This document shows, piece by piece, positions 5,530 through 48,779 of a DNA stretch of 64,000 bases (its first letter is position 1; each line of letters opens with the position of its first letter). Both the position numbers and the translations under genes were made by a program. The notes under the pieces are model-generated. The model was not told the DNA's origin. It made no database searches and saw only the letters and a list, made by a program, of their open reading frames with translations. Origin of the DNA: Patescibacteria group bacterium (lineage in GTDB: Bacteria > Patescibacteriota > Minisyncoccia > Minisyncoccales > Staskawiczbacteraceae); the NCBI GenBank assembly GCA_018829965.1, contig JAHJTG010000016.1:29537-93536 (forward strand). Reading direction: 5' to 3'.

Positions 5530-5588
5530 ACAATTTATTAAATGAGTTTGGAGAAATTAGTGAGGTCGGGACCTCACTAATAATTTTT

Positions 5589-5780
5589 AACTGTTAAACG
5601 AGGCAATAAGTTTAAAAGTAAATTTCGCAGGCAATTTAGCATGGTTTCGTCGATTGGCGACCGCAACACCCGGTGTTGTCGCAACACCGGGTGTTGCGGA
5701 GTGTGTTGCGGAGTAAATTTAAATAGCCCTGAGACGCTGGACGAAGGGACTATCGGTACTTTTAAACTCGTTGCCGAACG
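5589..5780 (-). repeat. F1 long-hairpin element (CGCTCGG...CCTCGCT superfamily), copy a
   Basis: Plus strand aactgttaaacgagg-[ggcaataagtttaaaagta ... tacttttaaactcgttgcc]-gaacg. Ends 1 nt from the rlmE stop. Interior holds nested GC palindromes (gcaacacccggtgttg x2). Confidence 0.85.
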
Positions 5781-6877: not shown

Positions 6878-6894
6878 AAGTATTTTTGTTTTTT

Positions 6895-7043
6895 AACTGT
6901 TAAGCGAGGCAGTAGTTATAAAAGTGCCCCTCGCAGGCGATTTTGCATGGTTCCGCCTCGTGGCGGAAAAATCGCCGAGAGTGGAGATGACCAAACCTCG
7001 CAGGGGTTTGGATTATCGCCACTTTTATGGCTACTACCGAGCG
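6895..7043 (-). repeat. F1 long-hairpin element, copy b
   Basis: aactgttaagcgagg-[ggcagtagttataaaagtg ... cacttttatggctactacc]-gagcg. Ends 1 nt before the rmuC stop. Confidence 0.85.
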
Positions 7044-10407: not shown

Positions 10408-11760
10408 TTAGCGCTTTCTATAATCAAAACGGCTTGATGGCCTACGACCAGACGGCCTACTATTTCTATGTGAAAAATAACTGCCTCTATTAAAACCACT
10501 GGGAGCATTAGATTGTCCCGATTCTATCGAGTATCCTTGATGGTTCCGACTTTGTCGAGAATCCTCGACTTTGTCGGGACTTTGCCATCTGGACTGACTT
10601 GAATGAGCTGGAAGATCGGGTAATCTTGAAATAGGAAGATATAGTCTGGTTAATCTTTCAATTTCTCTAACTTTAGCCCCTTGATCTGGTAAAACAAAAG
10701 AAATAGCTTTACCTGACATACCGGCCCTGCCAGTTCTTCCGATACGATGGACATAGTCTTCTGGATTTTCAGGAAGGTCATAATTAATAACTAATTCAAT
10801 ACCTTTAACATCTATACCGCGTGAAGCAATATCAGTTGCCACAAGCACCCTATATCTACCTATCTTAAATCCCTCTAATGCTTCTTTTCTTTGTCGGAGT
10901 GATTTATTTGAATGTATTTCTGCCGCAGAAACTCCAATATTGCGTAAATCTTCACAAATTCTCCTTGCGTTAAATTTAATTCTTAAAAAGATTAAAACGC
11001 TTCCCTTATATTCTTTAATCAATTTTCTCAATAACGAAGGCTTTTGGTCTTTTCTAACAACAAACAATTCGTGCTCAATATTTTTAGCAGTAGTCCCGGT
11101 TTTAGCTATCTCTACCCTAACAGGAAGCTTCATGTGATTGCTGGCAATTTTTACAATGCCATCTGGCATTGTTGCCGAAAATAACATAGTTTGTCTATCT
11201 TTAGGTAATACTTGTAGTATTTTAGCTATCTGTGGAGCAAAACCCATATCAAACATTCTATCGGCTTCATCTAAAACTAAGACTGTAACATCGCGCAAAT
11301 TAAGAGTTCTCTGTTGAAGATGGTCATTAATCCTTCCTGGAGTACCAATAACAACATTAGGATTATTACGGATCGCTCTTATTTGATTATAAATAGGGGC
11401 TCCACCGATTAACACAACTGTTTTTATGCCAAATCCTCTCCCTATCTTTTCTATAGCCTCACTCACCTGTATAGCTAATTCACGGGTTGGTAATACGATT
11501 AATCCCCTTCCCTTACCAGCTTTTAAAAGCCGCTGGACTAAAGGAATACCAAAAGCTAAGGTCTTACCTGTGCCTGTTTGAGCTATACCAATAATATCTT
11601 TGCCTTCAATAGCTGCAGGAATTGCTTTGTGTTGTATTGAGGTTGGAACTTTAAAATCCATTCTTAAAAGTACATCAAGAATCTTTGGAGCTATCCCAAG
11701 ACCGCCAAAAGTCATTTCTGTTTCGCTTAATATATGTTTTTCTGTTTGTTTGTTTATCAT
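10408..11760 (-). CDS. DEAD-box ATP-dependent RNA helicase with R/S/G-rich tail
   Basis: Q motif, AQTGTGKT, PTRELA, DEAD, SAT, HRIGRTGRAG. The C-terminal tail contains an in-frame GC-rich repeat (10517-10580). Confidence 0.93.
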   Translation of the reverse strand: MINKQTEKHILSETEMTFGGLGIAPKILDVLLRMDFKVPTSIQHKAIPAAIEGKDIIGIAQTGTGKTLAFGIPLVQRLLKAGKGRGLIVLPTRELAIQVSEAIEKIGRGFGIKTVVLIGGAPIYNQIRAIRNNPNVVIGTPGRINDHLQQRTLNLRDVTVLVLDEADRMFDMGFAPQIAKILQVLPKDRQTMLFSATMPDGIVKIASNHMKLPVRVEIAKTGTTAKNIEHELFVVRKDQKPSLLRKLIKEYKGSVLIFLRIKFNARRICEDLRNIGVSAAEIHSNKSLRQRKEALEGFKIGRYRVLVATDIASRGIDVKGIELVINYDLPENPEDYVHRIGRTGRAGMSGKAISFVLPDQGAKVREIERLTRLYLPISRLPDLPAHSSQSRWQSPDKVEDSRQSRNHQGYSIESGQSNAPSGFNRGSYFSHRNSRPSGRRPSSRFDYRKR

Positions 11761-15786: not shown

Positions 15787-16626
15787 TTAAAGTAGATACA
15801 ATTCTTGGTTATATCCGCCGATACCAACAAACTCTGCCTCACCTTTCAAAATCTTTTCGTATGGCTGACACGAAAAACAACCTTGAGATCCACGAGGACA
15901 TTCAAAACGGCCAATCCCCCGAGCCTCTTTAACTTTTCTAGCAATAGTTAAAACTTTTTCCCGCGCGCTAGTAATTTCTGGTAAAGCAACGCTTGAAGGA
16001 GTATCTGCATTGTCTAAATACCAGTAAGCAGCACCAGAAACTTTTCTTTTTTGCAGAGCGTTTAGAAGTAAAATGTAAATTGGCAGTTGAAGGGAATCCT
16101 GCCCTTCTTCGTTCTTTCCAGTTTTAAAATCAATCACCCGAATACTATCGTCTGCCTCAATATATTCTAACCAATCAATCTTCCCGCATAAAATTATATT
16201 ATCTTCCTCTGATAAAAAGAAATTCGGCAACATCTCACTTTCTTCATTTTTCAGTTTTATTGTTTTCTTCAATAAAGGTCCTGGATTTTTTGCGACTCTC
16301 TCTATCATTTGCTTCGCACGCTCTTTTGCATCCGACTCTTCTTTTTCTGCTCTAAATCCGCCAATTTTTCCAGAAACTTTTTTCCAATTTTCTTCAAATG
16401 CTTCCAATAACGATTTTTTAAATCTATCTTCCACCTTATACTTCGTTAAACTCTCTAATGTTTCGTGCACAGCCGAGCCTAATGATAAAGCCGGACTTAC
16501 TAAGTTTATCTTTCTGTTGTCCTTACTTTTATATATATTATGCAAATAATATGCCCGAGGACATTTTAAAAAGTCGTTAATGGACGAATGCGACACCCAT
16601 GTTGAATTGTATTTATCTTTTGCCAT
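15787..16626 (-). CDS. Cas4/AddB-type PD-(D/E)XK nuclease with 4-Cys cluster
   Basis: N-terminal CPRAYYL, nuclease core GKIDWLE...VIDFKTGK...QLPIY, C-terminal CPRGSQGCFSC. Confidence 0.8.
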   Translation of the reverse strand: MAKDKYNSTWVSHSSINDFLKCPRAYYLHNIYKSKDNRKINLVSPALSLGSAVHETLESLTKYKVEDRFKKSLLEAFEENWKKVSGKIGGFRAEKEESDAKERAKQMIERVAKNPGPLLKKTIKLKNEESEMLPNFFLSEEDNIILCGKIDWLEYIEADDSIRVIDFKTGKNEEGQDSLQLPIYILLLNALQKRKVSGAAYWYLDNADTPSSVALPEITSAREKVLTIARKVKEARGIGRFECPRGSQGCFSCQPYEKILKGEAEFVGIGGYNQELYLL

Positions 16627-16750
16627 ATTTATGAGCGAAGAAAGAATGAAAACTGAGGAAGGGAGAAAATAACAAAGTTATTTTCGACGACCGAAACTTT
16701 CATTCTGACTGAGCGATTAAATATATAGGCGATTTATCGCCTCTATAATT
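16627..16750 (-). repeat. F2 start-codon-abutting leader element, copy a
   Basis: Gene-sense strand: TTATAGAG-[GGCGATAAATCGCC]-TATATATTTAATCGCTCAGTCAGAATGAAA...TTTCATTCTTTCTTCGCTCATAAAT-ATG. Fills the whole spacer between the UvrD-like stop and the nuclease ATG. Confidence 0.85.
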
Positions 16751-19747
16751 TTAAGTTTGTCTAAAATCGCAAATATCTCTGAAGTCGCAATACTCGCACT
16801 GCCAGCCCGGAGTTGGCTCAAACTTACTATCTTTTATTGCCTCAATTTCTGCGATTATCTTTTCTTTTCTATCCTGCTTTTCTTTATCTGAGCCTAGAAA
16901 TGATGCTTGGCTATTGTTATCTAGGTAGTAATAGGCTAATTCTTTTGGTTTAATATTTAAAACCTCTTCTGCTGCTATTTGATAGATTAATAACTGGGAT
17001 TTATCGTCAGCTTCTAGCTTTTCTTTCGGTTTACCAGTTTTGTAATCAATAATCTTTACTCCATTTTCAGAATCATCAATCCTATCTATCACTCCGTATA
17101 AATTATATCCCCCTACTTTTAAATTGAAAGGTAGCTCTAATGCCAACTCATTGTTAATTTTTAAAATCTTTGGAGGATTCTTTTTAAAATCTTCGTAAAA
17201 ATCCTTAATTATCCTTTTGCCTAGTTTATAATAATCATCTTTTTGTTTTTTTGATTCGTACCACTCGCCAATCCAATTTCGTTCATAAAGCTTTTCCAAT
17301 ATTTTAAATTCATCCCCTTTCCCACTCTTCTTCCCAGTTATTGGGACGTATGACGTCCCAATAACTTTTTTACTAGGGCCGAATAGAGATTCTTGATTTA
17401 CTTTACTGGCTTCGTTTACATTTTTTAAAAAATTGTAAAGAGTGGCGTGCATTGTTTTACCGAACGAAAACACCGCCTTGCCCCTAATAGGAATCTTTAG
17501 AATAAACCCAAACTTGTACTGCAACGGACATTTTTCAAAGGCAGCCAGTTGGGAGAAAGAAAAATGCTCTGGCAAATACTTATTCTCTAATGTCTTAGGC
17601 TTTCTTATCTCTACCTTATCGGCTAATAAGCCCTTCTTTTCTTTAACTGCATCCCCTTTTGATTCTTCGTATCCCATTTCAATTAAAAATCTGGAAAGCT
17701 TCTTTTTTCTTTGACCTCCGTAATCTTGGGCCGATGTGAAATATAATCCTTTTTTAGCTCTCGTCATTGCCACATAACAAATACGCCTTTCTTCTTGCAA
17801 ATGCACGTCGCCTGTTGGTTTAATATCCTTAATTAATTCATCTGGTAATTCAATCGGTTCTTTTCTTTCTATCACAGGGAAACGCCTATCAACCATGCTT
17901 ACCAGAAACACATACTTAAACTCCAAGCCCTTAGCCGCGTGTATTGTCATTATTTTAACCATATCAGGACCTTGTTCTGGGTCAAATTCAAGTTTTCCTT
18001 CTTCTCCTGATTCAAGTTCTAAAGTAAGCTCCTCCATAAAGTTTTTTAAAGCAGGAGCAATTGCTGACTCCTCAAAACTTTGAACCTTATCGTAAAATTG
18101 GTTTAACAGGTCTAACTTCTCTTTTTCGTCTCGATTAATTAAATACTTTAAGTATCCGGAATCATTCATAAACGCCACTAATATCTCAATAACCGTTTTG
18201 TCTTTAACTAAAATGCTGTGTTTTTTGATTATAGAAAGGATAAAGCTTATCTTTTCTTTAGTTTGGGCGCTTACTCCAGTAATCAGCGGGGCTTCTTGCA
18301 ATGCCTCAAAAAGTGATTTGGTTTTTTTATGACCATATTGAGTAATAGTAGCAATATCCTCATCTGATATTTCCAAAAACGGCAAACTCAAAATCCTATA
18401 AACCGCTGCGCATTCATGGTAGTTATCCAATAATTTAAAGTAAGAGATAATATCTAAAATGACTGGCTTTGAATAAAGTCCTCTTGAAGCTAAAAATTGG
18501 TATGGCATGCCCGCTCTTTCTAAGGCTCTGACAAAGGGAATCGCTGTATCGTTTGCTCTTACTAAAATAGCAAAGTCGCTATAACTTGAATCTTTATCTC
18601 TCTTTAAAATTTCAGCAATCTTTTTTATTGTTTTCCTTACTTCTTCGTCTAAGCTTTTGGCACTAATATGTTCTATCACTCCTTCCCCCTTGTTCTCTGC
18701 AATTAACTTTTTATCAATCTTGTTTACAAACTCCAATCTATCAGGGTCGTTTGCTTTAATAAAAACATACGCTTTGTCTAAAATGTTTTGCGTAGACCTA
18801 TAGTTATTTATTAAAGATATTTGTTTGGCTTTTGTCCCGATTTCATCGAGGATCCTCGACGGCGAAGCCGTCGGGAAAAAATCCTTAGCAAACTGCACAA
18901 TATTATTAAAAGAAGCGCCTCTCCATCTATAAATAGCTTGGTCGTCGTCGGCACAGACAGTTAAATTATTTCCCGGTTCGGCTAATATCTTTATTAACTC
19001 ATACTGGGCGTAGTTTGTGTCTTGGAACTCGTCAACTAAAATATATTTAAACTTTTCCCTATACTTTTTTAAAATCAACGGACGCTTTTTAAATAAAAGC
19101 AAACAATAGTTTATTAAATCACCAAAATCCAATACGTCGTTATCTAAAAGCATTTTTTGATAAATATAGTAGGCATTAGCAACTTCTTTTATTCTTTCTG
19201 TCTCTTGGACTTCCGGCAAATCGTCTAAGCTTGTTTTTAAGCTATCTGCATATTTTAAATAGTCTTCTGGGTAAATACCTTGGTCTTTGCAGTGGGAAAA
19301 ATGATAAATTAGGGATTGTATAAACTTCGTGGGGTTCCCCAATGATTTGTAATAATTCAATTCAAATTTATTTAAGTTTTGACGAGCTAACAGCCACCCG
19401 GCGGTTCCATCTAATATTTTAAAATCGGGAGGCAATCCAATATCTAAAGCATTTTCCTTTAAAACTCTTTCGCAGAAGGCGTGGAATGTAGAAATCCACA
19501 AATCCATATATCCAAAGTCCAAAAGCTGGTCTACTCTTTCTTCCATCTCCCCTGCTGCCTTTTCAGTAAAAGTAACTGCTAAAATCTCCTCTGGCTTTGC
19601 CAAGCCCTTTTCAATTAAATTAACTATTCGCTGAGTAATAACCGTGGTTTTACCAGTTCCCGCCCCAGCCACAATTAAAAGAGGCCCCTTACCATGGACC
19701 ACCGCTTCCTTTTGCTCTTTGTTTAGTTTTTCCAAATTTAACGCCAT
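16751..19747 (-). CDS. UvrD/PcrA-type SF1A helicase fused to a C-terminal Cas4-like Fe-S PD-(D/E)XK nuclease
   Basis: AGAGTGKTT, DEFQDTN, helicase motifs through VAMTRAK. C-terminus has CPLQYKF, IDRIDD...IIDYKTGK...QLLIYQ, CEYCDFRDIC. Start set at MALNLEKL (19747), directly after F2 copy b; the track ORF reads on into the repeat. Confidence 0.88.
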   Translation of the reverse strand: MALNLEKLNKEQKEAVVHGKGPLLIVAGAGTGKTTVITQRIVNLIEKGLAKPEEILAVTFTEKAAGEMEERVDQLLDFGYMDLWISTFHAFCERVLKENALDIGLPPDFKILDGTAGWLLARQNLNKFELNYYKSLGNPTKFIQSLIYHFSHCKDQGIYPEDYLKYADSLKTSLDDLPEVQETERIKEVANAYYIYQKMLLDNDVLDFGDLINYCLLLFKKRPLILKKYREKFKYILVDEFQDTNYAQYELIKILAEPGNNLTVCADDDQAIYRWRGASFNNIVQFAKDFFPTASPSRILDEIGTKAKQISLINNYRSTQNILDKAYVFIKANDPDRLEFVNKIDKKLIAENKGEGVIEHISAKSLDEEVRKTIKKIAEILKRDKDSSYSDFAILVRANDTAIPFVRALERAGMPYQFLASRGLYSKPVILDIISYFKLLDNYHECAAVYRILSLPFLEISDEDIATITQYGHKKTKSLFEALQEAPLITGVSAQTKEKISFILSIIKKHSILVKDKTVIEILVAFMNDSGYLKYLINRDEKEKLDLLNQFYDKVQSFEESAIAPALKNFMEELTLELESGEEGKLEFDPEQGPDMVKIMTIHAAKGLEFKYVFLVSMVDRRFPVIERKEPIELPDELIKDIKPTGDVHLQEERRICYVAMTRAKKGLYFTSAQDYGGQRKKKLSRFLIEMGYEESKGDAVKEKKGLLADKVEIRKPKTLENKYLPEHFSFSQLAAFEKCPLQYKFGFILKIPIRGKAVFSFGKTMHATLYNFLKNVNEASKVNQESLFGPSKKVIGTSYVPITGKKSGKGDEFKILEKLYERNWIGEWYESKKQKDDYYKLGKRIIKDFYEDFKKNPPKILKINNELALELPFNLKVGGYNLYGVIDRIDDSENGVKIIDYKTGKPKEKLEADDKSQLLIYQIAAEEVLNIKPKELAYYYLDNNSQASFLGSDKEKQDRKEKIIAEIEAIKDSKFEPTPGWQCEYCDFRDICDFRQT

Positions 19748-19876
19748 AATTATGAGCGAGGAAGGAATGAAAATTGAGGAAGGAAAAAGTAAAAGTTTAC
19801 TTTTATTTTTGGCAACCGAAAATTTCATTCCGACCGAGCGATTAATTATATAGATAGCGAAGCTATCTCTATAATT
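19748..19876 (-). repeat. F2 leader element, copy b
   Basis: Gene-sense: ATTATAGAG-[ATAGCTTCGCTAT]-CTATATAATTAATCGCTCGGTCGGAATGAAA...TTTCATTCCTTCCTCGCTCATAATT-ATG. Confidence 0.85.
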
Positions 19877-20366: not shown

Positions 20367-20400
20367 GAACATTCTGACATTCTTGAGAATGTCAGAATGT
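20367..20400. repeat. P-palindrome copy 1 (ACATTCTnACATTCT / AGAATGTnAGAATGT)
   Basis: aacattctgacattc-ttga-gaatgtcagaatgtt. Confidence 0.85.
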
Positions 20401-20424
20401 TTTTATATACCTCCAAAATTTTAA

Positions 20425-20706
20425 CTAAGTTCTAAATAATTTTCGCAGTTCTGTTTTTGTCTGATTCAAAATTCTTTTTCTCGCCGGTTTTAAATTTTTG
20501 CCTGCCCGATTGATATAAAAATTAAGCATTGACATCGCTGATTGAAACGACGTTCCTTTCCGGCGCTCGCTCGCGAGCGCCGATTCTTTTAGTGAAAGGG
20601 CGATTTTTTTCGGGTTGTCCCACGTAAAAACGCCTTCTTCCAAGTCAAGAGCATTGCTGTATTTTGTCACTCTATCAGACCAAAATTTGGTTTGCTTTTT
20701 AGTCAT
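20425..20706 (-). CDS. DUF3175-like small protein
   Basis: 93 aa. The pattern WSDRVTKYSNALDLEEGVF...SLK.SA..S.RRK...FQSAMSMLNFYINRAG matches my recollection of DUF3175. Confidence 0.55.
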   Translation of the reverse strand: MTKKQTKFWSDRVTKYSNALDLEEGVFTWDNPKKIALSLKESALASERRKGTSFQSAMSMLNFYINRAGKNLKPARKRILNQTKTELRKLFRT

Positions 20707-20788
20707 TCTATTTTTAAAAATAGAAACTAAAGTTTATATATTTGCGGCGTTCGGTCGGAAAATAAAAGCAATCTTTTCTTTTCCTCCC

Positions 20789-21181
20789 TCACTTGCAATT
20801 ATTGATGATTGTTTTTAAATAGGGCCAGAAAATAAGAATGCCGATAATTGCCGCGCCAAAAATAACCAAAAATACAAAAGCCGAAAGCAAATCTTTTATT
20901 ATTTTAACGCGCGGGTCATGGCTTGGCTGTAAAAAGTCCAAAAAGCGCTCCATAATGGAATTAATCATTTCTAATCCAAGCACGGAAAAAATCATTACTA
21001 AAAGCACGGCCTTTTCTGTTCTGGTGGTCGGGAAATAAAGCATTGCTCCGACAACTAATAGAGCCGCTGTTGCCATATATTTAAAAGCCGGCTCTTTAAC
21101 AAGAACCGTCCATAATCCTTTCCAAGAATTCTGAAAACTCAAAAAAATATTTTTCCTTCTCTGATTATTATTTTGTTCCAT
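20789..21181 (-). CDS. dgkA: diacylglycerol/undecaprenol kinase (DgkA family)
   Basis: 3-TM small kinase. Contains SFQNSWKGL, EPAFKY, LVLGLEMINSIMERFLD, KIIKDLLSAFV. Confidence 0.8.
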   Translation of the reverse strand: MEQNNNQRRKNIFLSFQNSWKGLWTVLVKEPAFKYMATAALLVVGAMLYFPTTRTEKAVLLVMIFSVLGLEMINSIMERFLDFLQPSHDPRVKIIKDLLSAFVFLVIFGAAIIGILIFWPYLKTIINNCK

Positions 21182-21194
21182 TTTATTATTTTAT

Positions 21195-21228
21195 CATTCC
21201 GACATTCTCAAGAATGCGAGAATGTCGT
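21195..21228. repeat. P-palindrome copy 2 (degenerate)
   Basis: cattccGACATTCTCaagaatgcGAGAATGTCg. Overlaps the ArsR-like stop and lies 15 nt upstream of the dgkA ATG. Confidence 0.7.
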
Positions 21229-21501: not shown

Positions 21502-21535
21502 ATTTTACCATAACATTCTCACATTCTCGAGAATG
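21502..21535. repeat. P-palindrome copy 3 (perfect 34 bp)
   Basis: aacattctcacattctcgagaatgtgagaatgtt. Lies 7 nt upstream of the ArsR-like ATG. Confidence 0.95.
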
Positions 21536-21592
21536 TGAGAATGTTTATTTACTCTTTGAATTATGTTTCCAAAATTTTAAGCTTTTCCATAA

Positions 21593-22315
21593 TTATTTCT
21601 TTGAATTTTTGCCGTTAATAACAATTAGGGCGTGAAAATCCTGATATAAACGAAAATCTTTTCTCAAGTTTTCCTCAAATAATTTTTGCAGAAACTGATA
21701 ATCCGTCTTGTCTGCCAAATTACGCTCTTTAACTAATCTTCTGGTATATTCATCTATAACAAAAACTGGTTTATCTAAAGCGTAAAGTAAAATGCTATCA
21801 GCTGTTTCCGGTCCAATGCCTTTTAATTTTAGCAGTTCTTCCCTTAATTCTTTGAGTTCTGTTTTTTTCATTCTTTCCAAACTGCCATCCCGATTTAATC
21901 GAGGATCTCCCGATGAAATCGAGGATCCTCGACTCTGTCGGGACTCGACAGAGTCGGGATAATTCTCCACGATAAATTTGGATAAATTAAATAGATATTG
22001 GGCCTTGGTTTTGTAAAATCCCGAGGGTTTAATTAAAGGCACTAATCTTTTTGCGCCCAATTGATAAAGAGCCTTTAGCGAATTTATCTTTGCTTTCTTT
22101 AAATTATTTAAAGCCAATTCTACGTTTTTCCAATTTGTTCTCTGAGTTAAAATCGCCCCGATTGCTATTTCCTCTCTTTCTCGTCTAATTTTAGACCTTT
22201 TACACCAAAGTTTCCATTGTCCCTTAGGCGTTCCGTATTTCTTTTTTAACTCTTTATATAATTTCTCAAATTGTTTAACGTCGGATGTTAAACATTCACG
22301 TCGGGTGTTAAACAT
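21593..22315 (-). CDS. endonuclease III-related HhH-GPD DNA glycosylase with in-frame GC-rich insertion
   Basis: ILTQRTNWKNV and the HhH motif LKGIGPETADSILLYALDKPVFVIDEYTRR. About 23 extra residues (SRQSRGSSISSGDPRLNRDGS) are encoded by the repeat at 21889-21958. Confidence 0.8.
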   Translation of the reverse strand: MFNTRRECLTSDVKQFEKLYKELKKKYGTPKGQWKLWCKRSKIRREREEIAIGAILTQRTNWKNVELALNNLKKAKINSLKALYQLGAKRLVPLIKPSGFYKTKAQYLFNLSKFIVENYPDSVESRQSRGSSISSGDPRLNRDGSLERMKKTELKELREELLKLKGIGPETADSILLYALDKPVFVIDEYTRRLVKERNLADKTDYQFLQKLFEENLRKDFRLYQDFHALIVINGKNSKK

Positions 22316-22324: not shown

Positions 22325-22356
22325 ACATTCTCACATTCTCGAGAATGTGAGAATGA
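22325..22356. repeat. P-palindrome copy 4
   Basis: acattctcacattctcgagaatgtgagaatga. Lies 10 nt upstream of the nth-like ATG. Confidence 0.9.
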
Positions 22357-22486
22357 TTTTATTTTAATTCTCTTTTAAATGCTTTGGATAAAATGGATTT
22401 AGTCTAATTTTTTTGTTGGCCAGAGCATAAATTAATGGTGGCTGACCCCATTTTTTCTCAAGTCTAGTTCAAACTTGTGCGTTATG

Positions 22487-22646: not shown

Positions 22647-23279
22647 CTATTTCCACTTCATTTTCAACGCCTCGGATATTTCCACGAGGTTTAAACCTAG
22701 AATAGTGCCAACGCAACTTGTTGCCAAGGCGGAATAAACATGCTCTTTTCCGACAGAATCCTGCCAGATAGGTATGCTTTTCCCGTTATGATTTATTTTA
22801 AAATTCGCACCTTCGTTATCTGTGTTGACATCACTTGCCATAAAATCAGCTCCCTGTTCAAAGCCGAAGGTAATATCTTTTAAATTAGCCGTGTCGTTTA
22901 TTTTCACAGCTGATTTATCATCAAAATTCAAAACTAAAAATCCGTAAGAAGGGATTAATTGAGCTAATTCGGATATTTGTTTTATTTCTTTTAAAATCTC
23001 TACCATATGAGTTACAACCAAAATCGGCAATGGAGACAATCTTACCAGCTCAGCCATCTTTTTAAAGATTTTTTCACTTTCTAAATTTGTTTCTATAATA
23101 AAAACGTTTTTTATTAAAATATCAAAAAGATTAGGAGTTTTCTTAATCAACTTCTTAACTTTAAAATTGCTTTCCAAAATATGGGAAATAGATTCAACAG
23201 CCAAACTCTTGCCTTTGCCAGACACTATAATAACTTTTATCTTTTTAAGACGGAAAATAGTTTTGAATATGAAATTCAT
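22647..23279 (-). CDS. short Mur-ligase-like protein (central domain only, degenerate P-loop)
   Basis: 210 aa in the position where murE/murF follows ftsI. IIVSGKGKS stands in place of GxNGKTT. VLNFDD and GKEHVYSALA resemble MurF central-domain motifs. No C-terminal domain. Confidence 0.4.
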   Translation of the reverse strand: MNFIFKTIFRLKKIKVIIVSGKGKSLAVESISHILESNFKVKKLIKKTPNLFDILIKNVFIIETNLESEKIFKKMAELVRLSPLPILVVTHMVEILKEIKQISELAQLIPSYGFLVLNFDDKSAVKINDTANLKDITFGFEQGADFMASDVNTDNEGANFKINHNGKSIPIWQDSVGKEHVYSALATSCVGTILGLNLVEISEALKMKWK

Positions 23280-23372
23280 AATTATGAGTGAGGGAGGAAT
23301 ATATGAAAAATTTTCATATATTCCGACTGAACGATTAATTATATAAATTACTTTTAGTAATTTCTATATAAT
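23280..23372 (-). repeat. F2 leader element, copy c
   Basis: Gene-sense: ATTATATAG-[AAATTACTAAAAGTAATTT]-ATATAATTAATCGTTCAGTCGGAATATATGAAAA...TTTTCATATATTCCTCCCTCACTCATAATT-ATG. Starts at the ftsI stop. Confidence 0.85.
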
Positions 23373-25433: not shown

Positions 25434-25568
25434 AACTTTGAAAACTCTAAGTTCTAATTTCTAAATCCTAAATAATTTCAAAATTCAAATATCTAAATTA
25501 TAAACACTTTTGAACTTTGGGTTTTGAAATTGTAATTTATTTAGAGTTTAGGATTTGGGATTTAGAAT
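25434..25568. repeat. F4 inverted heptamer-array element, copy a
   Basis: (TCTAAnT)n ... taaataatttcaaaa / ttttgaaattgtaatttattta ... (AGGATTT/GGGATTT)n. Fills the rsmH-ftsL spacer and abuts the ftsL-ORF ATG. Confidence 0.8.
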
Positions 25569-26522
25569 TTATGTTTTAACTATTGCTCTTAATTTTGCTG
25601 ACCTTGAACGATTATTTGATTTAATTTCCTCTAATGAGGCTGTAATCGGCTTTTTTGTTAATATTTTTATTACGCCGTCTTTTGATTGGTCTCTAAAAAA
25701 GTTTTTAACGATTCTGTCTTCCAGAGAATGAAAGGAGATAACCACTAATCTTCCTCCGGGTTCTAACACCTCTATTGCTTGAGGTAAAACATTCTTCAAA
25801 TTCTCTAACTCCTGATTAACTGCGATTCTTAATGCTTGGAATGTTCTTGTTGCAAAATGGATTCTTCCTCTTTCATATCCTCTCGGTACTGCTTTTTTAA
25901 TAACTTCTATCAAGTCAGTTGTTGTTTCAAGTTTTTTTACCCTTCGAGCTTCTACGATCGCTTTAGCGATTCTTCTTGATAATCTTTCCTCCCCGTATTC
26001 TCTCAAGATTGCTTCTATGTCGTTCTCTCTCCAGCTGTTTACTATCTGCCTTGCAGTCAGCTCGTTATCCTTTAAATAACGCATATCAAGCGGTTCATTT
26101 TTCATAAAGGCGAATCCCCTGCCTGAATCGTCTAGGTGCCAACTAGACATTCCTAGATCCAGTAAAATCCCATTTACCCCGTTAGAGGTTTGTCCCCCTT
26201 GTTCATCTTGTTCCCCTTCCGAGCCTCCTTGACCTCTAACTGGGCGAGCTGACCCGAAGTTATTATCTCGGATAATTTCTTTTAAATTTGTATAAGAACC
26301 AACAACAAGAATGATTCGATTCTTGTAATTTTCAATTTCCAATTTACAATTTTCAATTTGTTGACTATCTAAATCGATTCCTAAAAGTTTTCCATTCGGA
26401 CCGCTTCTCTCTAATATCGCAATCGCATGACCGCCTTCGCCTATTGTGCAATCAATAAAGTTTTCATTGCTCTTTGGATTTAAATATTCAAGGACTTCTT
26501 TTGGCAGAACGGGTATATGCAT
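25569..26522 (-). CDS. rsmH: 16S rRNA m4C1402 methyltransferase RsmH with in-frame F3-like insertion
   Basis: MHIPVL, DCTIGEGGH, ILLDLGMSS, RGFAFMKNEPLDMR, SFHSLEDRIVK. About 25 extra residues come from 26177-26244. Confidence 0.92.
   Translation of the reverse strand: MHIPVLPKEVLEYLNPKSNENFIDCTIGEGGHAIAILERSGPNGKLLGIDLDSQQIENCKLEIENYKNRIILVVGSYTNLKEIIRDNNFGSARPVRGQGGSEGEQDEQGGQTSNGVNGILLDLGMSSWHLDDSGRGFAFMKNEPLDMRYLKDNELTARQIVNSWRENDIEAILREYGEERLSRRIAKAIVEARRVKKLETTTDLIEVIKKAVPRGYERGRIHFATRTFQALRIAVNQELENLKNVLPQAIEVLEPGGRLVVISFHSLEDRIVKNFFRDQSKDGVIKILTKKPITASLEEIKSNNRSRSAKLRAIVKT
26177..26244. mobile_element. F3-related short inverted-repeat element inside rsmH
   Basis: Left end ccccgttagaggtttg versus F3b ctccgttagaagtttgc. 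Right end acctctaactggg versus F3 acttctaacgggg. GC-rich interior, translated in frame. Confidence 0.65.
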
Positions 26523-26523: not shown

Positions 26524-26940
26524 TTATTTCGCTTTCTCGCTTTTATTCATATTTTCATCCTGTTTGGTTATATAACTATTCCATCTTTTTGCGTCCCAGA
26601 CTTCTAATTCTTTATTTAATCCGCAAATTACTACTTCTTTCTCTAAACCAGCGTATTTTTTTAAATAATCTGGAATAAGAATTCTGCCTAATTTATCAAA
26701 GCTGACCTCCATAGCGCCGGCAAGAATAACTCTGGCAAAACCGCGTGCTTCTGGTTCGGTAATCGGGAGTCCGCCTAATTTCTTCAACATATCCTGCCAG
26801 CTCTTTTTGGTATAAACAACTAAACACTTAGTTATGCCCTTGGTGATTATAACTCTTACTCCAAGTTCGCCTCTAAACTTAGCGGGCATAGCTAATCTTT
26901 TTTTAACGTCAATTTTATATCTATATTCACCAGTAAACAT
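26524..26940 (-). CDS. mraZ: transcriptional regulator MraZ
   Basis: MFTGEY.YKID.K.R..MP.KFR, two SpoVT/AbrB-like halves. First gene of the dcw cluster. Confidence 0.93.
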   Translation of the reverse strand: MFTGEYRYKIDVKKRLAMPAKFRGELGVRVIITKGITKCLVVYTKKSWQDMLKKLGGLPITEPEARGFARVILAGAMEVSFDKLGRILIPDYLKKYAGLEKEVVICGLNKELEVWDAKRWNSYITKQDENMNKSEKAK

Positions 26941-26981
26941 ACGAATAATTTTTAAATAATTTCTTAATGGCTCAAATTTTA

Positions 26982-27201
26982 AACTGTTAAGTGAGGCGAC
27001 GAGTTTAAAAGTAAATTTCGCAGGCTCAATCTTTCAGTTAAGCGAGGCAATAATGTATGCGGGTGCACTTCGGAGCCAAGCTGTAAATGAGGACTCGGAA
27101 TAATATTGCCTACGTGCTTGGCGAGAAATAGGCGCGGCGGAGGAATAAATCTATTTTGGCTTAAGCCGACGCCGTGCTCCCGCATATATTATTGCCGAGT
27201 G
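26982..27201 (-). repeat. F1 composite: truncated arm of copy-a type plus a full copy nearly identical to copy e
   Basis: aactgttaagtgaggcgacgagtttaaaagtaaatttcgcagg (compare 5589-5630), then agttaagcgagg-[ggcaataatgtatgcggg ... cccgcatatattattgcc]-gagtg. About 100 nt match 44305-44425. Confidence 0.85.
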
Positions 27202-27202
27202 T

Positions 27203-27352
27203 TATCCACAGGTTAATTAGGTTCTCCCACACTTATCCACTATTATCCACTACATATCCTTTATACCCCACTTTATAGGATTGGGTCAACACTTATAAAC
27301 CCAAGCTCATTTCCCTAGGGAAAACACTTATTTCTCCACAGGAAATCCACTA
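27203..27352 (-). promoter_or_regulatory. array of seven GTGG(A/G) boxes in helical phase upstream of mraZ (candidate MraZ operator; also DnaA-box-like)
   Basis: CCAC cores on the plus strand at 27206, 27227, 27237, 27247, 27268, 27336 and 27347 (spacings 21, 10, 10, 21, -, 11). Includes TTATCCACA, TTATCCACT x2 and TTCTCCACA. Confidence 0.55.
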
Positions 27353-27437: not shown

Positions 27438-28970
27438 CTAAGGACATTTGTATATTTTGCCAGAACAATATCCTTTATTCCCAGGATTAATTGTAGTCTC
27501 ATGGCTTGCTCCTAAAATATCCATACAGAAATATCTTACCTCATCAACACATTTTAAACCTGGAGAACATTCCATGGCTGAATCTGAAATTAAAGACGGC
27601 AACTTCACATAGGCACAATAATAATTCTTAGATTTATTAATAATTACTTCATTGCCACTAATTGCCTTTATCTCGTCGCAATAAGGTTTTATGCTATCGT
27701 TCTGACAAGAAACATTAGTGTAAGCACCATCTTTCATATACATTAAATTCATTTCGTTATTTAATTCAGCCATACTGCTTTCAATTTTTAAGTTCCTATA
27801 CTGCGGAAACGCTTCTTCAAATTCTTTAAAGATTACTGGCGCCTCGACTGCTATTGGCTGATCAAACTTTGAATTAGTTATTTCAATACCTAAACCAACC
27901 ACTCCTTCTTGATCGCCAGTAATCTTAGCAAGGTCTATGCTTTTGTCTAACTTGAATCCATAAAGAAAATTATCCTTCATGCCTATTGAAAGCTCAGCAT
28001 TAATCTCTCCTATCTTATTTAAAAACTCTGAAACCATCCCTTCTATTGCGCCATCAGGTAATGACGTTAATGATTCCTGGCCATATTGCTTCATTGCCTC
28101 GCTTGCTAAAGCTTCTACTAAACTCGCTACCTTGTTATTATCCAACGCAACTAAATAGTGATACATTTTTTGACCACCGATTATTTGATTAGATAATTGC
28201 TTTTTTACAGCATAGAATTTGTTTTCAGATAATATTCTTTTGATTTGCTCGGCAAGAACGGCTCTTTGAGCGTTGTCATTTTGCAGAAATTGATTATACG
28301 AAAATTGGGTGATTGGAATTTTAATCCAACTCCCTATTACACTGTTTAAATCAATCCCCATCATCATTAAAAGTGGCTCTACAGAAGGGGCATTAACTTC
28401 CCCGATATTAAAATATCCTTCGCTAAGACTAACCATTTTCACATTAAACTTTGCTGAATTGACTGTTACCGAAGCCCCGACTCCATTAATCAATGATATT
28501 CCATAATCTCCTTGTATTCTCGGGTTGTTTACATCCTTATCCCAATCACCACTAAAAGTAATTGTCGCTGCCATAGAATCCTGACTATTTACATCTAAAT
28601 CTATCTTTGCTTCAGAATGAGCTGATTTTATCGCTATCATCTTCTCCATCATTAAAGCTGTAATCTTTTCCGGATCAGGCCTGAAAGGATTCCAAACAGG
28701 ATCCCAGATTCTCATGGCTAAAGATGTCCCAACGCCAACAATTGCTAATACTATTACAGCAATTATGACCTTAATCAAAATACCTGATTTTTTCCCTGGC
28801 TGTGGCTGTTTAAGCCCAATAGATGAAGAAGGAATTGGAGTTGGAACGGGAGGCGGAGTTGGAATTGGATTAGGATGTGGAGGCGGTGGAGTGGGACGAG
28901 GAGGAATTGGATTTAGTTTAGGGGACATCATTGTTCCCCCACTGATTGGTTGGCCTGGTATTTGTTCCAT
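27438..28970 (-). CDS. hypothetical membrane-anchored surface protein (Pro-rich N-terminus, Cys-rich C-terminus)
   Basis: N-terminal PIPPRPTPPPPHPNPIPTPPPVPTPIP, one TM (ILIKVIIAVIVLAIVGVGT), large extracytoplasmic region. The last approx. 95 aa contain 10 Cys. Confidence 0.6.
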   Translation of the reverse strand: MEQIPGQPISGGTMMSPKLNPIPPRPTPPPPHPNPIPTPPPVPTPIPSSSIGLKQPQPGKKSGILIKVIIAVIVLAIVGVGTSLAMRIWDPVWNPFRPDPEKITALMMEKMIAIKSAHSEAKIDLDVNSQDSMAATITFSGDWDKDVNNPRIQGDYGISLINGVGASVTVNSAKFNVKMVSLSEGYFNIGEVNAPSVEPLLMMMGIDLNSVIGSWIKIPITQFSYNQFLQNDNAQRAVLAEQIKRILSENKFYAVKKQLSNQIIGGQKMYHYLVALDNNKVASLVEALASEAMKQYGQESLTSLPDGAIEGMVSEFLNKIGEINAELSIGMKDNFLYGFKLDKSIDLAKITGDQEGVVGLGIEITNSKFDQPIAVEAPVIFKEFEEAFPQYRNLKIESSMAELNNEMNLMYMKDGAYTNVSCQNDSIKPYCDEIKAISGNEVIINKSKNYYCAYVKLPSLISDSAMECSPGLKCVDEVRYFCMDILGASHETTINPGNKGYCSGKIYKCP

Positions 28971-34390: not shown

Positions 34391-34420
34391 AAAAAAAACC
34401 GCTCGCAAGCGGTTTTTTCT
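34391..34420. terminator. bidirectional rho-independent terminator
   Basis: aaaaaaaaCCGCTcgcaAGCGGtttttt. Confidence 0.75.
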
Positions 34421-34427
34421 TTTTCTA

Positions 34428-34566
34428 AACTGTTAAGCGAGGAAAGTAATTTCTTTTACGATTCGGAGCGAATTGGATTGGTGTCGCCTTAGGCGACCAA
34501 TTCGCGAGTAGTAGCAAATTTTTCGCTGGAAAAAATTCGCGTGTAAAAGAAATTACTTTCCGAGCG
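34428..34566 (-). repeat. F1 long-hairpin element, copy d
   Basis: aactgttaagcgagg-[ggaaagtaatttcttttac ... gtaaaagaaattactttcc]-gagcg. Perfect 19-bp outer stem. Abuts the rplL stop. Confidence 0.88.
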
Positions 34567-35625: not shown

Positions 35626-35760
35626 AATAGTTTTGCTTCACAAAAGAAACTCTAAATTCTAAGCTCTAAACTCTAAACTCGTCGTGTTTGTAATTTTTAA
35701 TTTAGAATTTTGAATTTATTTAGGATTTAGAATTTCGGATTTAGAATTTTTACAAAATAA
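35626..35760. repeat. F4 inverted heptamer-array element, copy b
   Basis: aaactctaaattctaagctctaaactctaaactcg ... tttagaattttgaatttatttaggatttagaatttcggatttagaattt. Starts at the rplJ ATG. Confidence 0.8.
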
Positions 35761-37060: not shown

Positions 37061-37696
37061 CTATTTGCTTATTAGAGGAACGAAAACAAAGCCCGGGTAT
37101 TCTATTTCCTCGTATTTATTATCTGTTTTTTTTATAATCGTTTTAATCGAATTCCCTACTGGAGCTACTATTTTACCACCGATTTTCAGCTGTTTTTTCC
37201 AGGCAAGAGGAATTTTTGCGCAGGATGCAGACACTAATATTTTATCAAACCCTTCGACAAGCTCAGGGTCGGTAGCAAGACCAGAATACCTTTTTGAACC
37301 GTCCCCTAAAACATACTTAACAATTCCTTTTTCTATAAAGCTATACTTTGCCACATTCTGCTCGCCAAATTCTTTTAACTCCGGGATTAATTCAATAGAA
37401 ACTATTTTGCCTGTCTCCCCTACTATTTGAGCTAAAAGAGCTGTTGTCCAGCCAGAGCCGGAACCAATGTCTAAAATCTTCTCGCCTATTTTCGGCTGTA
37501 ATTGCTCTAACATAAAAGCAACCACTGCAGGTTGCGATATGGTTTGATTAAAACCAATGGGAAGCGCTTCATTAAGCTCGGCAAGTTTTTTCATTCCTTC
37601 TGGCAAAAAATCCTGCCTCTTTATTTTTATAAAGGCGTCTTTTATAGAATCGGTTTTCAACCAACCTTCTTGAATTAAAGAATCTATAAGATTCAT
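37061..37696 (-). CDS. pcm: protein-L-isoaspartate O-methyltransferase
   Basis: QTISQPAVVAFMLE, LDIGSGSGWTTALLA, GGKIVAPVG. Confidence 0.9.
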   Translation of the reverse strand: MNLIDSLIQEGWLKTDSIKDAFIKIKRQDFLPEGMKKLAELNEALPIGFNQTISQPAVVAFMLEQLQPKIGEKILDIGSGSGWTTALLAQIVGETGKIVSIELIPELKEFGEQNVAKYSFIEKGIVKYVLGDGSKRYSGLATDPELVEGFDKILVSASCAKIPLAWKKQLKIGGKIVAPVGNSIKTIIKKTDNKYEEIEYPGFVFVPLISK

Positions 37697-37822
37697 AATA
37701 AACTCTAAATTCTAATATCTAAATTCTAAATAATTTCAAAACTAAAATATTTAAACTCGAAAAGTGTTTTGAATTTTGTGATTTAGAATTTGGGATTTAT
37801 TTAGGATTTAGTGCTTAGGATT
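37697..37822. repeat. F4 inverted heptamer-array element, copy c
   Basis: aaactctaaattctaatatctaaattctaaataatttcaaaa ... tttgaattttgtgatttagaatttgggatttatttaggatttag. Abuts the pcm ATG. Confidence 0.8.
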
Positions 37823-38200
37823 TTACAGTAACTTTCCTTGTCTTAATTTTTTAGTGATAGTTTCGGCTTTTTCTTTGCCTTCTTTGGTGATAGTAAATTC
37901 AGTTTTAGGATCTCCTTTAATAAGTTTCTGATTTCTCAATGCTCTTAATGGTCTGTCTAATTTCCTCGCATCCGGCCATTGAGGGTAGCTCTTAAAGCCA
38001 AAAACATCTGGGAATAAAATAAAGGATTGATTGACTAATTTCTCAAACTTACAATCTTGCTTGTTTGATAATATTGAATAAATACTAAAAAGAATCAAAT
38101 CACCTATCGACATCTTGGGAAAAGCTGTTTTTGTTTTATTTTTTTTATCTTTACTCATAATAGATGAACTTATTTTATTTTTCCCAAACAATATGTCCAT
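37823..38200 (-). CDS. hypothetical protein (first gene downstream of the R-M pair; start uncertain)
   Basis: 125-aa ORF overlapping the HNH gene by 26 nt. Internal Mets at residues 15 and 30 would remove the overlap. Confidence 0.45.
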   Translation of the reverse strand: MDILFGKNKISSSIMSKDKKNKTKTAFPKMSIGDLILFSIYSILSNKQDCKFEKLVNQSFILFPDVFGFKSYPQWPDARKLDRPLRALRNQKLIKGDPKTEFTITKEGKEKAETITKKLRQGKLL

Positions 38201-41026: not shown

Positions 41027-41188
41027 TTATCTTTTTCCTTCCTTGTGCAGAGTATGTTTTCTGCATCTCTTGCAGAATTTTTTCATTTCTAATTTCTTTT
41101 CAGCTGCTTTCTTTGATTTTTTTGTAAAGTAATTTATCTCCTTACAAACAGTACATAGAATCTTTGAAGCTTGTTTTTTCTTTGCCAT
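41027..41188 (-). CDS. rpmG: 50S ribosomal protein L33 (below the ORF-track length cutoff)
   Basis: Own translation: MAKKKQASKILCTVCKEINYFTKKSKKAAEKKLEMKKFCKRCRKHTLHKEGKR* (53 aa; CxxC...CxxC zinc ribbon, KHTLHKE). Confidence 0.9.
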   Translation of the reverse strand: MAKKKQASKILCTVCKEINYFTKKSKKAAEKKLEMKKFCKRCRKHTLHKEGKR

Positions 41189-41274
41189 ATTTATGAGCGA
41201 GGAAAGAATAAAAATTAATTTTTATTCTGACCGAGCGATTAAATATATAGGCGATTTATCGCCTCTATAATTTT
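41189..41274 (-). repeat. F2 leader element, copy d
   Basis: Gene-sense: TTATAGAG-[GGCGATAAATCGCC]-TATATATTTAATCGCTCGGTCAGAATAAAAATTAATTTTTATTCTTTCCTCGCTCATAAAT-ATG(rpmG). Confidence 0.85.
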
Positions 41275-41288: not shown

Positions 41289-41547
<259 letters not shown>

Positions 41548-41557
<10 letters not shown>

Positions 41558-44223: not shown

Positions 44224-44287
44224 AATATATTAATTTTAAATTTTAAATTTTAAATTTTTAAATAATTTCTTAATGATTCAACTCCTA

Positions 44288-48693: not shown

Positions 48694-48779
48694 TCTTATA
48701 GAAATAACTTCGTTATTTATATAATTATTGCATTCGGTCGAAATGAAAATTAATTTTCATTTCTTCCTCATTTATAATT
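48694..48779 (+). repeat. F2 leader element, copy e (only plus-strand copy; same orientation relative to its gene)
   Basis: TTATAGAAATAACTTCGTTATTTATATAATTATTGCATTCGGTCGAAATGAAAATTAATTTTCATTTCTTCCTCATTTATAATT-ATG. Confidence 0.8.

Follow-up and report, generated by a model that had tools for sequence, protein, structure and literature searches.

The window analysed here, a stretch of 64,000 nucleotides (positions 29,537 to 93,536 of contig JAHJTG010000016.1), carries several copies of a short repeated element, F2, which occupies the space in front of unrelated genes and ends in most cases exactly at their start codons. F2 is 90-140 bp long, consists of two hairpins, and holds in fixed order a -10-like box, a conserved structured region, an A/T-rich leader, and an ATG. 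The reading that we favour, and to which we give about an even chance, takes F2 for a lineage-specific palindromic repeat that proliferates within a sub-lineage of Candidatus Staskawiczbacteria, which are tiny groundwater bacteria, and works there as a self-contained gene-start cassette. The G+C content of the window is 34%, and its gene content points to a Candidatus Staskawiczbacteria-like member of the Parcubacteria, within the candidate phyla radiation (CPR). The top relatives of the protein encoded behind copy 1 carry the labels Staskawiczbacteria or Nealsonbacteria.

Distribution of F2

A preliminary description of this DNA had listed five copies of F2, each running up to a start codon and all built on one layout. 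The five copies lie where it placed them, each abuts the ATG of an open reading frame (ORF), and the layout recurs in every one (Table 1). When the window was scanned with the two conserved blocks, each gave 4 matches when up to 3 mismatches were allowed, where shuffles predict 0.01 and 0.00. The sequence of copy 5 has diverged further (TTATTGCATTCGGTCGAAAT ... CTCATTTATAATT), yet it is recovered by a covariance model of the kind that had been suggested. Built on 25 short-form copies and run unfiltered over the window, this model finds 6 copies there, and the count over window, genome, and metagenome loci comes to 61. The sixth copy is degenerate and lies antisense to both of the minus-strand genes that flank it, dgkA (20789-21181) and a DUF3175 gene (20425-20706). 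It overlaps the final codons and the stop of dgkA, is without the terminal ATG, and has no plus-strand gene behind it.

Table 1. Coordinates of the F2 copies in the window and of the parts of copy 4
Feature	Position	Strand	ORF opened	Covariance model (bits)	Description
F2 copy 1	16627..16750	-	15787-16626(-)	77.2	Long form with a nested inner hairpin
F2 copy 2	19748..19876	-	16751-19747(-)	90	Long form; abuts the ATG of the UvrD-helicase/nuclease gene (19745-19747)
F2 copy 3	23280..23372	-	22647-23279(-)	80.2	Short form
F2 copy 4	41189..41274	-	41027-41188(-)	95.7	Short form; reaches from the intron-split tRNA gene to the ATG of rpmG (L33)
F2 copy 5	48694..48779	+	48780-49484(+)	74.5	Diverged short form
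F2 sixth copy	20710..20803	+		60.9	Degenerate; E ~1e-8
hp1 of copy 4	41249..41264	-			AGGCGAT-AA-ATCGCCT, copy-specific top of the palindrome TATAGAG...CTATATA
-10-like hexamer of copy 4	41242..41247	-			TATATT; also the 5' arm of the outer helix, with AAAUAUG as partner
Conserved 18-mer of copy 4	41224..41241	-			TAATCGCTCGGTCAGAAT; holds the predicted transcription start and the 5' arm of hp2
hp2 of copy 4	41201..41232	-			GG-UC-AGAAUAAAAAU / AUUUUUAUUCU-UU-CC, with conserved pyrimidine-pyrimidine mismatches
Pyrimidine-rich tract, A/U-rich leader, and own start codon of copy 4	41186..41204	-			UUCCUCGCUCAUAAAU-AUG

Outside the window, 185,579 species genomes were searched with an 18-mer that holds neither the -10 box nor the ATG. 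Of the 47 matches, 8 have the remainder of the element around them and were judged genuine, and all of these come from Staskawiczbacteria-type metagenome-assembled genomes (MAGs); the remaining 39 stand alone, in unrelated phyla, and are put down to chance. A metagenome scan added 42 further loci. Rfam (release 15) matched four tRNAs when the whole window was searched at the gathering threshold and left F2 unmatched, as it did when three F2-bearing loci were searched with E-values up to 1. No account of F2 was found in the literature on CPR promoters and leaders or on CPR intergenic repeats, nor under its literal sequences, in a search that covered part of the journals.

Anatomy and structural covariation

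Read in gene sense, F2 begins with (T)TATAGA(G/A), the variable top of a first hairpin (hp1), and T(A/C)TATA(A/T)T. It continues with TAATCG(C/T)TC(G/A)GTC(G/A)GAAT and a variable apical stem-loop, and closes with ATTCC, 8-10 pyrimidines, (C/T)ATAA(T/A)T, and ATG. The small copy-specific hairpin that had been noticed near the 5' end is present, but it is the top of a longer palindrome, TATAGAnnn...nnnT(A/C)TATA, with feet TATAGA and TATATA. From the -10 box to the ATG runs a second, imperfect palindrome, in which TATAAT pairs with AUUAUG to form an outer helix, and GC, GG, and GGAAU pair with GC, CC, and AUUCC to form a second hairpin (hp2). Three fixed pyrimidine-pyrimidine 2x2 mismatches separate these stretches of pairing. 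These mismatches and the right arm of hp2 are always pyrimidine-rich in gene sense, and the right arm is CU-rich even where it is unpaired, which is a strand-specific sign. The hexamer that forms the 5' arm of the outer helix is TATAAT in copies 2, 3, and 5. For copy 4, hp2 has a predicted energy of -11.3 kcal/mol (z = -5.1), and its apical part is variable and covaries among the copies.

F2 falls into two length classes. To the long class belong copies 1 and 2 and 16 copies elsewhere, and in these the hp2 loop encloses another, diverged hairpin of hp2 type, which keeps the NNTC rhythm. Nested units are found too, as are tandem arrangements of one and a half units (L026 and L048). There are also diverged subfamilies, mostly not flush with an ATG, which retain TATA(A/T)T and AATTAT(A/G) and vary in the TAATCG part. 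The ends of the hp2 unit form an imperfect inverted repeat, TATAATTA... / ...TAATTAT[A/G], whose two halves covary, and F2 as a whole (hp1 plus hp2) shares merely TATA at its two ends.

Pairing is preserved as the sequence changes. In 60 distinct copies, which are mutually related and whose alignment was fitted to the covariance model, standard pairs fill 97.3% of the cells. None of 500 shuffles attains this value; their share is 87.7%, and it falls to about 50% if the partners are slid along each other. Compensatory changes are present in 6 of 6 pairs of hp1, 6 of 7 of hp2, and 3 of 8 of the outer helix, and RNAalifold agrees. In the outer helix, the fifth base of the -10 box changes together with the context of the AUG: 46 copies have TATAAT with AATTATG (an A-U pair) and 8 have TATATT with AAATATG (a U-A pair), while at another position the pair is A-U in 56 copies and G-C in 4. 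The comparison of sequences thus supports three helices, hp1, hp2, and the outer one that joins the TATAAT box to AUUAUG.

Relation to start codons and neighbouring genes

The position of F2 at start codons is not random. Using search patterns without the ATG, we obtained 48 distinct assessable copies from Staskawiczbacteria-like genomes and metagenomes, and 39 of them end exactly in ATG, far beyond chance; 38 of these 39 ATGs open ORFs of 53-998 aa. Six copies end in ATA and have an ORF-opening ATG 7-10 nt farther on, with five of the six offsets out of frame, as would be expected if an out-of-frame terminal ATG were harmful. Another, the downstream unit of the tandem pair at L048, ends in ATA with just a 19-aa ORF behind it, and the last two end in ATA or ACG with no ORF behind them (L042 and L088). 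In none of the 48 do 1-6 nt separate F2 from the ATG.

At copy 1, the protein starts with MAKDKY, and its three closest relatives start with M(T)EQKI(A/V/T)(K/R)DKY. Here the ATG of F2 has replaced the native start together with about five codons and the spacer. This replacement, the ATA found in non-flush copies, the N-terminus kept at copy 2, and the conservation of an orthologous pair (both below) together point to use of the terminal ATG as a start codon. The earlier statement that F2 ends exactly at the start codon is therefore right for most copies, but that codon is not always the native one. Copy 2 shows the other case: the native N-terminus is kept, and MALNLEKLNKEQ matches MALDLEKLNKEQ of a relative. 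A gene caller had begun the copy-1 gene (P0022) 52 codons too far downstream, which gives 227 aa instead of 279 aa.

F2 had also been described as forming the whole upstream spacer. Copies 1, 3, and 5 do fill the entire gap from stop codon to ATG, the first between the UvrD-nuclease and PD-(D/E)XK nuclease genes, the second between a PBP/FtsI-like gene and a 210-aa Mur-ligase-like ORF, and the third between a PMT_2-like gene and a GT2 gene. Copies 2 and 4 do not: a longer non-coding stretch lies upstream of copy 2, and an intron-split tRNA gene upstream of copy 4. The Mur-ligase-like ORF behind copy 3 matches just the second half of the Mur ligase middle domain, and it may be a truncated gene that is now started by the ATG of F2. 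The tRNA gene (41290-41557, minus strand) is split by an insert of ~190 nt into the halves GCCGATGTAGCTCAGTGGTAGAGC... and ...GGTCACCAGTTCAAGTCTGGTCATCGGC. It was missed by ARAGORN and at the Rfam gathering score, and a group I intron is matched below threshold at 41344-41532 (24 bits, E = 3e-4) when the search is relaxed.

That the genes served are unrelated is confirmed by Pfam, which recognises a PD-(D/E)XK/Cas4-like nuclease, a UvrD helicase-nuclease, a Mur-ligase-like protein, L33, and a GT2 glycosyltransferase in the window. Elsewhere, the genes behind F2 encode EF-Tu, L3, L31, RuvA, triosephosphate isomerase, ThyA, RNase H, HPF, phosphomannomutase, and trigger factor. None of the five leaders in the window has a Shine-Dalgarno sequence before the AUG, as had been pointed out, but this is a trait of the genome and is not special to F2 genes: an SD-like 4-mer precedes 4 of 59 window ORFs, compared with 7 and 9 at control positions, and the regions before starts are A/T-rich. 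The organism hardly uses Shine-Dalgarno sequences, so a leader lacking one is normal here. None of the loci retrieved reaches the 3' end of a 16S rRNA gene, from which the anti-SD sequence of an F2-bearing organism could be read.

Of the 61 copies, nearly all point towards the gene downstream, and the clear exceptions are few: window copy 6, L042, and L066:2510. The upstream gene usually has the same orientation, and its stop lies within TATAGA or at most 10 nt from it in 15 of 40 copies; in six, the TAG of ATAGAA itself serves as the upstream stop codon. The copy at L042:5209-5306 (contig JAPLYZ010000015.1) is without hp1 and adjoins a 16S rRNA gene at its 5' end in back-to-back orientation, such that the antisense strand of F2, including the purine-rich run GAGGGAGGGAGGAAU, immediately precedes the 16S start. 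CGCTCATAA bears a possible likeness to the boxA/NusB motif of lambda, CGCTCTTA, with which it agrees at 7 of 8 positions; this sole rRNA-linked copy faces the wrong way.

These exceptions bear on a reading in which the functional strand is the antisense one, and F2 yields a small structured antisense RNA or leader, as it might at the 16S-abutting copy. On that strand the hp2 mismatches become three tandem G.A/A.G pairs (GA-GC-GA-GG-GA-GGAAU ... AUUCC-GA-CC-GA-GC-GA), and the fold is slightly stabler (-26.1 vs -23.5 kcal/mol). The CATAAT at the ATG end would be an inward-facing -10 box, which becomes TATATT through the terminal ATA at L042, and copy 6, read on that strand, is co-directional with its neighbours. 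However, the arrangement is met in just ~3 of 61 copies, nothing is conserved past hp1 on the antisense strand (neither a U-tract nor a flank), and the small antisense ORFs of five copies, compared by eye, are conserved neither in frame nor in length. Since it also leaves the ending at start codons unexplained, we hold this reading to be very improbable. A small peptide on the opposite strand (MSEE...) was likewise considered and rejected by eye, its frames and lengths differing between copies.

Mobility and constraint

F2 is portable, as had been proposed: it is dispersed, it is present in some relatives and absent from others, and near-identical copies occupy different loci. Nine related contigs that hold relatives of the copy-1 gene (67-87% protein identity), taken with up to 10 kb on each side and ~150 kb in all, contain no F2 copy. 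On three of them (L090, L098, and L099), the same UvrD-to-nuclease pair is separated by a spacer of 6-10 nt, which represents an empty site. The copy-1 variant with its specific 50-nt inner hairpin, on the other hand, recurs with 98-99% identity at L071 and L080, in a metagenome from another site, and at one of these two loci it stands directly before tuf. One copy, window copy 6, is inverted. Where the same copy can be followed between relatives, it is better conserved than its surroundings. The orthologous pair at L047 and L076 is 93% identical over F2, compared with 74% over coding sequence and 68% upstream, and the two hp1 sequences differ by an A-T to G-C double change. A phage origin was rejected, as neither a phage collection nor viral contigs gave any match to F2.

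A purely selfish palindromic repeat would account for part of this picture. Its position would be a by-product of a compact genome, in which insertions are tolerated nowhere but in the few bases between genes, copies with an in-frame ATG survive, and the others lose their ATG. Such a repeat would be patchily distributed among relatives, with near-identical copies at several loci, nested, tandem, and inverted copies, and empty sites of just 6-10 nt, and a hairpin at the DNA level would explain the covariation without strand asymmetry. We nevertheless consider this improbable. An extreme orientation bias, with few exceptions among 61 copies, and an exact fit to the ATG in 39 of 48 copies with no offset of 1-6 nt do not sit well with it. 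Orthologous copies that outlast the neighbouring coding sequence, with compensatory changes in hp1, are unlike neutral junk. The hp2 mismatches, which are always pyrimidines in the sense strand, and the right arm that stays CU-rich when unpaired also distinguish one strand from the other.

A candidate promoter and its transcript

The hexamer at the 3' foot of hp1 has several features of a promoter. TATAAT or TATATT stands in 12 of 12 genuine matches to a pattern that excludes the box (4 in the window and 8 in the genome collection), and, as had been claimed, TATA(A/T)T persists in every diverged subfamily. It has the A at position 2 and the T at position 6 that are typical of sigma-70-type -10 elements; this A at -11 and T at -7 are invariant, even where the neighbouring bases differ between subfamilies. 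In a simple scan, the best promoter-like match belongs to copy 3 alone (TAGAAA-17-TATAAT, 10 of 12 positions). The RNA shape put forward in the preliminary description is borne out by predicted folds. With a start 6-7 nt past TATA(A/T)T, the 5' G would be paired in hp2 and the AUG would be free. In such internally started RNAs, hp2 is predicted at -8 to -14 kcal/mol (z = -4.4 to -5.7), and the AUG lies 9-11 nt past the last pair. In the fold predicted for full-length F2 (z = -5.4 to -6.2), the AUG is masked by the outer helix and hp1 stands just past the upstream stop. From its sequence, an internal promoter in F2 is plausible, if unproven.

In the gene-start cassette that we favour, F2 would spread like a MITE or a REPIN, without a recognisable transposase. 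Its hp1, a 12-13 bp hairpin at the upstream stop or a few nucleotides from it, would end or stabilise the upstream transcript. TATA(A/T)T would act as a -10-only promoter, transcription would start inside the conserved 18-mer, and the first bases of the RNA would be paired in hp2, which as a 5'-terminal hairpin would protect the mRNA. Before the AUG would come the CU-rich tract and AUAAUU, an unpaired leader that lacks a Shine-Dalgarno sequence, and the ATG of F2 would become the start codon of whichever gene follows. As a possible refinement, the outer helix would form only in read-through RNA, where the AUG would be masked, and the AUG would be free on internally started RNA. As to the first of these roles, a terminator scan flagged the hp1 of copies 1 and 4 on both strands and that of copy 2 on the plus strand only. 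The tail of hp1 is AUAUAAUUAAU, with no clean U-tract, and most hp1 stems have just 2-3 G-C pairs.

Several observations weigh against this reading. F2 has no good -35 element (TATAGA at a spacing of 17 nt agrees at 3 of 6 positions) and no TGn extended -10, canonical TTGACA-N16-18-TATAAT promoters exist in other intergenic regions of the window, and promoter-like matches are as frequent in shuffles of this A/T-rich DNA. At L047 and L076 there is a perfect promoter 100-190 nt upstream of F2. At L033, the one copy with a divergent neighbour as near as 11 nt, a 10/12 promoter match stands just upstream; the divergent neighbour, which might have been taken as proof of a promoter inside F2, is weakened as an argument by this match. 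The copy at L084 sits between a probable rpsJ and rplC, genes that normally lie within a single operon. The -10 hexamer covaries with the AUG region, and it may thus be kept as a helix arm, with the further consequence that an RNA helix would require the -10 to be transcribed. The intermediates in the helices are G.U in 19 cases and A.C in 14, about equal numbers, so the covariation is silent on the strand and on whether RNA or single-stranded DNA folds. About a fifth of the copies are not flush with an ATG. As for mobility, the flanks of the 61 copies show no consistent target-site duplication, and there is no transposase among the 49 window ORFs.

The hexamer's covariation also fits a rival reading, in which F2 is an intercistronic or leader element that works at the RNA level, has no promoter of its own, and is transcribed from upstream within a longer RNA. 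The hairpin made of hp2 and the outer helix would be cut by RNase III or would mask the AUG, the upstream message would retain hp1 as a protective 3' hairpin, the downstream mRNA would carry a short A/U-rich leader, and TATAAT would be kept as the complement of AUUAUG. We regard this as a serious alternative, although an unlikely one compared with the cassette. The outer helix appears in the full-length folds, about one third of the copies span the stop-to-start gap of same-strand genes, L084 among them, the -35 of F2 is weak, and perfect canonical promoters lie upstream of L047 and L076. There is an RNase III gene in the window (44428-45117), and the mRNA hairpin of the Correia elements is a known substrate of that enzyme (PMC2649163). 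Against it, the A at -11 and the T at -7 stay constant even when their neighbours change. The helix is also retained in copies ending in ATA, where the real AUG lies 7-24 nt downstream and the start codon is uncovered, and the outer helix is weak, made of A-U and G.U pairs only. A candidate promoter within 250 nt upstream accompanies just 9 of 60 copies, against a background of 7.9%, as is expected for intra-operon copies. Processing or masking of this kind is, moreover, compatible with the gene-start cassette and does not exclude it. Our preference is for both modes together: F2 would end or cap the upstream message, start a message of its own, and mask the AUG on read-through.

A bolder version goes further, and we advance it as doubtful. 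In it, F2 would be a mobile gene-start module, equipped with all that a gene needs at its beginning, which would spread by replacing the native 5' ends of unrelated genes and so become indispensable to its host. It may work as a two-state switch of the AUG, and the G-C/CCUCC helix at the foot of hp2, which ends 9-11 nt ahead of the AUG, may stand in for the absent Shine-Dalgarno duplex by docking on the 30S subunit.

Comparison with known systems

Among known systems, F2 comes closest to the Correia elements of Neisseria (CREE or NEMIS), and the REP/REPIN palindromes are also close. Correia elements are dispersed, have inverted-repeat ends, stand mostly 5' of genes, and can create promoters at their ends; their terminal inverted repeat reads TATAG[CT]GGATTAA(CAAAAA/ATTTAAA)... 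(PMC2649163). Like F2, they measure ~70-160 bp, number ~100 or more per genome, change position from one related strain to another, and come in length variants (PMC2649163). In both, promoter hexamers are possible at the ends together with a hairpin in the mRNA, the hexamers of F2 being the -10-like TATAAT and, on the other strand, CATAAT. The left end of F2 begins with TATAG as the CREE repeat does, and there is no further sequence relationship. F2 differs in having no site for integration host factor (the motif CTTCAGCACCTTA is absent) and no visible TA duplication in the 61 copies. It is made of two separate hairpins, whereas CREE consists of one pair of terminal repeats around a core. F2 is almost always oriented with the gene, ends exactly at the start codon, and donates its ATG, while CREE lies at variable distances, for instance 98-99 bp before opa. 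The host of F2, a CPR bacterium, makes hardly any use of Shine-Dalgarno sequences.

REP, BIME, and REPIN sequences are short extragenic palindromes that are mobilised by RAYT transposases, multiply within a lineage, and leave no target-site duplication. REPs can stabilise the upstream mRNA, they lie mostly after genes or between convergent genes, and they carry no start codons. F2 resembles them in that its hairpin is kept by compensatory changes, which is consistent with an intermediate of single-stranded DNA or RNA. It differs in the fixed pyrimidine mismatches of hp2 and in the absence of a GTAG-type 5' tetranucleotide; indeed no tetranucleotide is conserved outside the palindromes, and neither a RAYT-like ORF nor an HUH gene was found in the window. 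By sequence, F2 does not fit the Correia elements nor, as far as the window shows, REP/REPIN, and its fixed orientation, its donated start codon, and its frequent occupation of the entire stop-to-start gap make it different in kind from both. With MITEs it shares presence or absence among relatives and multiple near-identical copies, but not the target-site duplication. F2 can be described as a small dispersed palindromic repeat with regulatory side-effects, whose unusual trait would be to act as a complete gene-start module in a CPR bacterium.

Two further comparisons concern the RNA. Stabilisers of the type found in the ompA 5' untranslated region, like engineered hairpin insulators and bicistronic designs, place a hairpin at the 5' end, with few unpaired nucleotides, before an unstructured start region. 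The same shape is predicted for an mRNA initiated within F2. Those examples are features of single genes or synthetic parts, whereas F2 is a repeated natural module with a pyrimidine tract instead of a Shine-Dalgarno sequence. RNase III sites of the phage T7 type are imperfect hairpins with internal loops that lie between cistrons, and their cutting leaves a 3' hairpin on the upstream message. F2 too is an imperfect hairpin with internal loops between cistrons, but it has no sequence similarity to these sites, it is chromosomal and dispersed, and its cleavage is putative.

Staskawiczbacteria also carry stem-loop TIGR arrays, with hairpin units that have an inner stem (bioRxiv 10.64898/2026.09.09.750476). 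F2 occurs in the same host group and its hairpin units likewise have a secondary inner stem, which raises the idea that F2 is a stem-loop tigRNA unit of a TIGR-Tas system. Another idea, prompted by the 27-bp palindrome of hp1 that overlaps the promoter-like region, is that F2 is the operator of a global dimeric regulator. Of all the explanations weighed here, these two together are the least credible. The tigRNAs are defined by box C/D motifs and variable spacer pairs and are clustered at tas genes (bioRxiv 10.64898/2026.09.09.750476). F2, by contrast, has neither RUGAUGA nor a CUGA pair, the positions that would be spacers are its most conserved part, and its copies are single and scattered before housekeeping genes. 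No Nop- or Tas-like protein was found among the 49 window ORFs, one large unannotated ORF being without a relative in the PDB. Lacking box C/D motifs, variable spacers, and a link to tas, F2 is close to refuted as a member of the tigRNAs. An operator, for its part, would need no changes that preserve pairing, yet hp1 has them in 6 of 6 pairs.

Other features of the window

The window holds further repeats. A second upstream family, of up to ~250 nt with the motif GCCTCGCTTAACAGTTTAAAA and 82-94% identity between copies, lies at 26947-27199 and 44253-44423, with partial copies at 5584-5659, 6890-6965, and 34407-34446 and another copy at L071:702-921. It precedes rpsP (43678-44223) among other genes, and it may be another portable upstream module. 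Within it, CTTAACAG bears a loose likeness to boxA. The gene behind one of its copies, at 26524-26940, we take to be mraZ. A cluster of GTGGAT, GTGGG, and TGTGGATAA boxes at 27200-27340 (minus strand), resembling DnaA or MraZ boxes, is located upstream of this probable mraZ and of mraW, at the start of the dcw cluster. Nearby, 27438-28970 (minus strand) encodes a 510-aa ORF for which Pfam gives no match and the solved structures no relative.

Several palindromic families occur as well. Four near-perfect palindromes of 31-34 nt (ACATTCTCACATTCTCGAGAATGTGAGAATGT), at 20369-20402, 21194-21227, 21513-21546, and 22325-22358, stand in successive intergenic gaps of one gene string, and two of them were flagged as terminator-like. 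Palindromic repeats of CGAATTACGAATTCGTAATTCG at 45122-45187 and 45624-45689 flank nusB, in the gaps beside rnc and the upstream gene. Arrays of short TTTAGGATTTAGAATTT-like units are found at 25436-25575, 35641-35750, 37694-37830, 42756-42820, 45950-46012, and 61054-61118; they are intergenic, lie on both strands, and often form inverted pairs around a gene. A perfect 42-nt inverted repeat with a TCCGTGAAAATCACGCTATAGCGTGATTTTCACGGA core (61411-61452 and 62035-62076) brackets a 179-aa ORF at 61460-61999. Finally, a 35-nt family built around the palindrome GTCGAGGATCCTCGAC is present at 10515-10577, 18834-18868, 21907-21941, 60788-60847, and 61166-61200, with some members (e.g. those at 18834 and 21907) inside ORFs by their coordinates.

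Significance

CPR bacteria, or Patescibacteria, have tiny genomes and cannot be grown alone, and the initiation of transcription and translation in them is almost uncharted. Roughly 8% of the window's genes (5 of about 60) have F2 in front of them, and in related organisms it stands before core genes such as tuf, rplC, rpmG, rpmE, tig, ruvA, and thyA. It also matters for annotation, as the misplaced start of the copy-1 gene illustrates. If F2 does carry a promoter, a leader, and a start codon, it would offer a ready-made and testable model of how these bacteria express genes independently of Shine-Dalgarno sequences. It would then be a natural portable expression part for a group that has no genetic tools, and, with the native N-terminus replaced at copy 1, an example of a repeat that rewrites the starts of genes.

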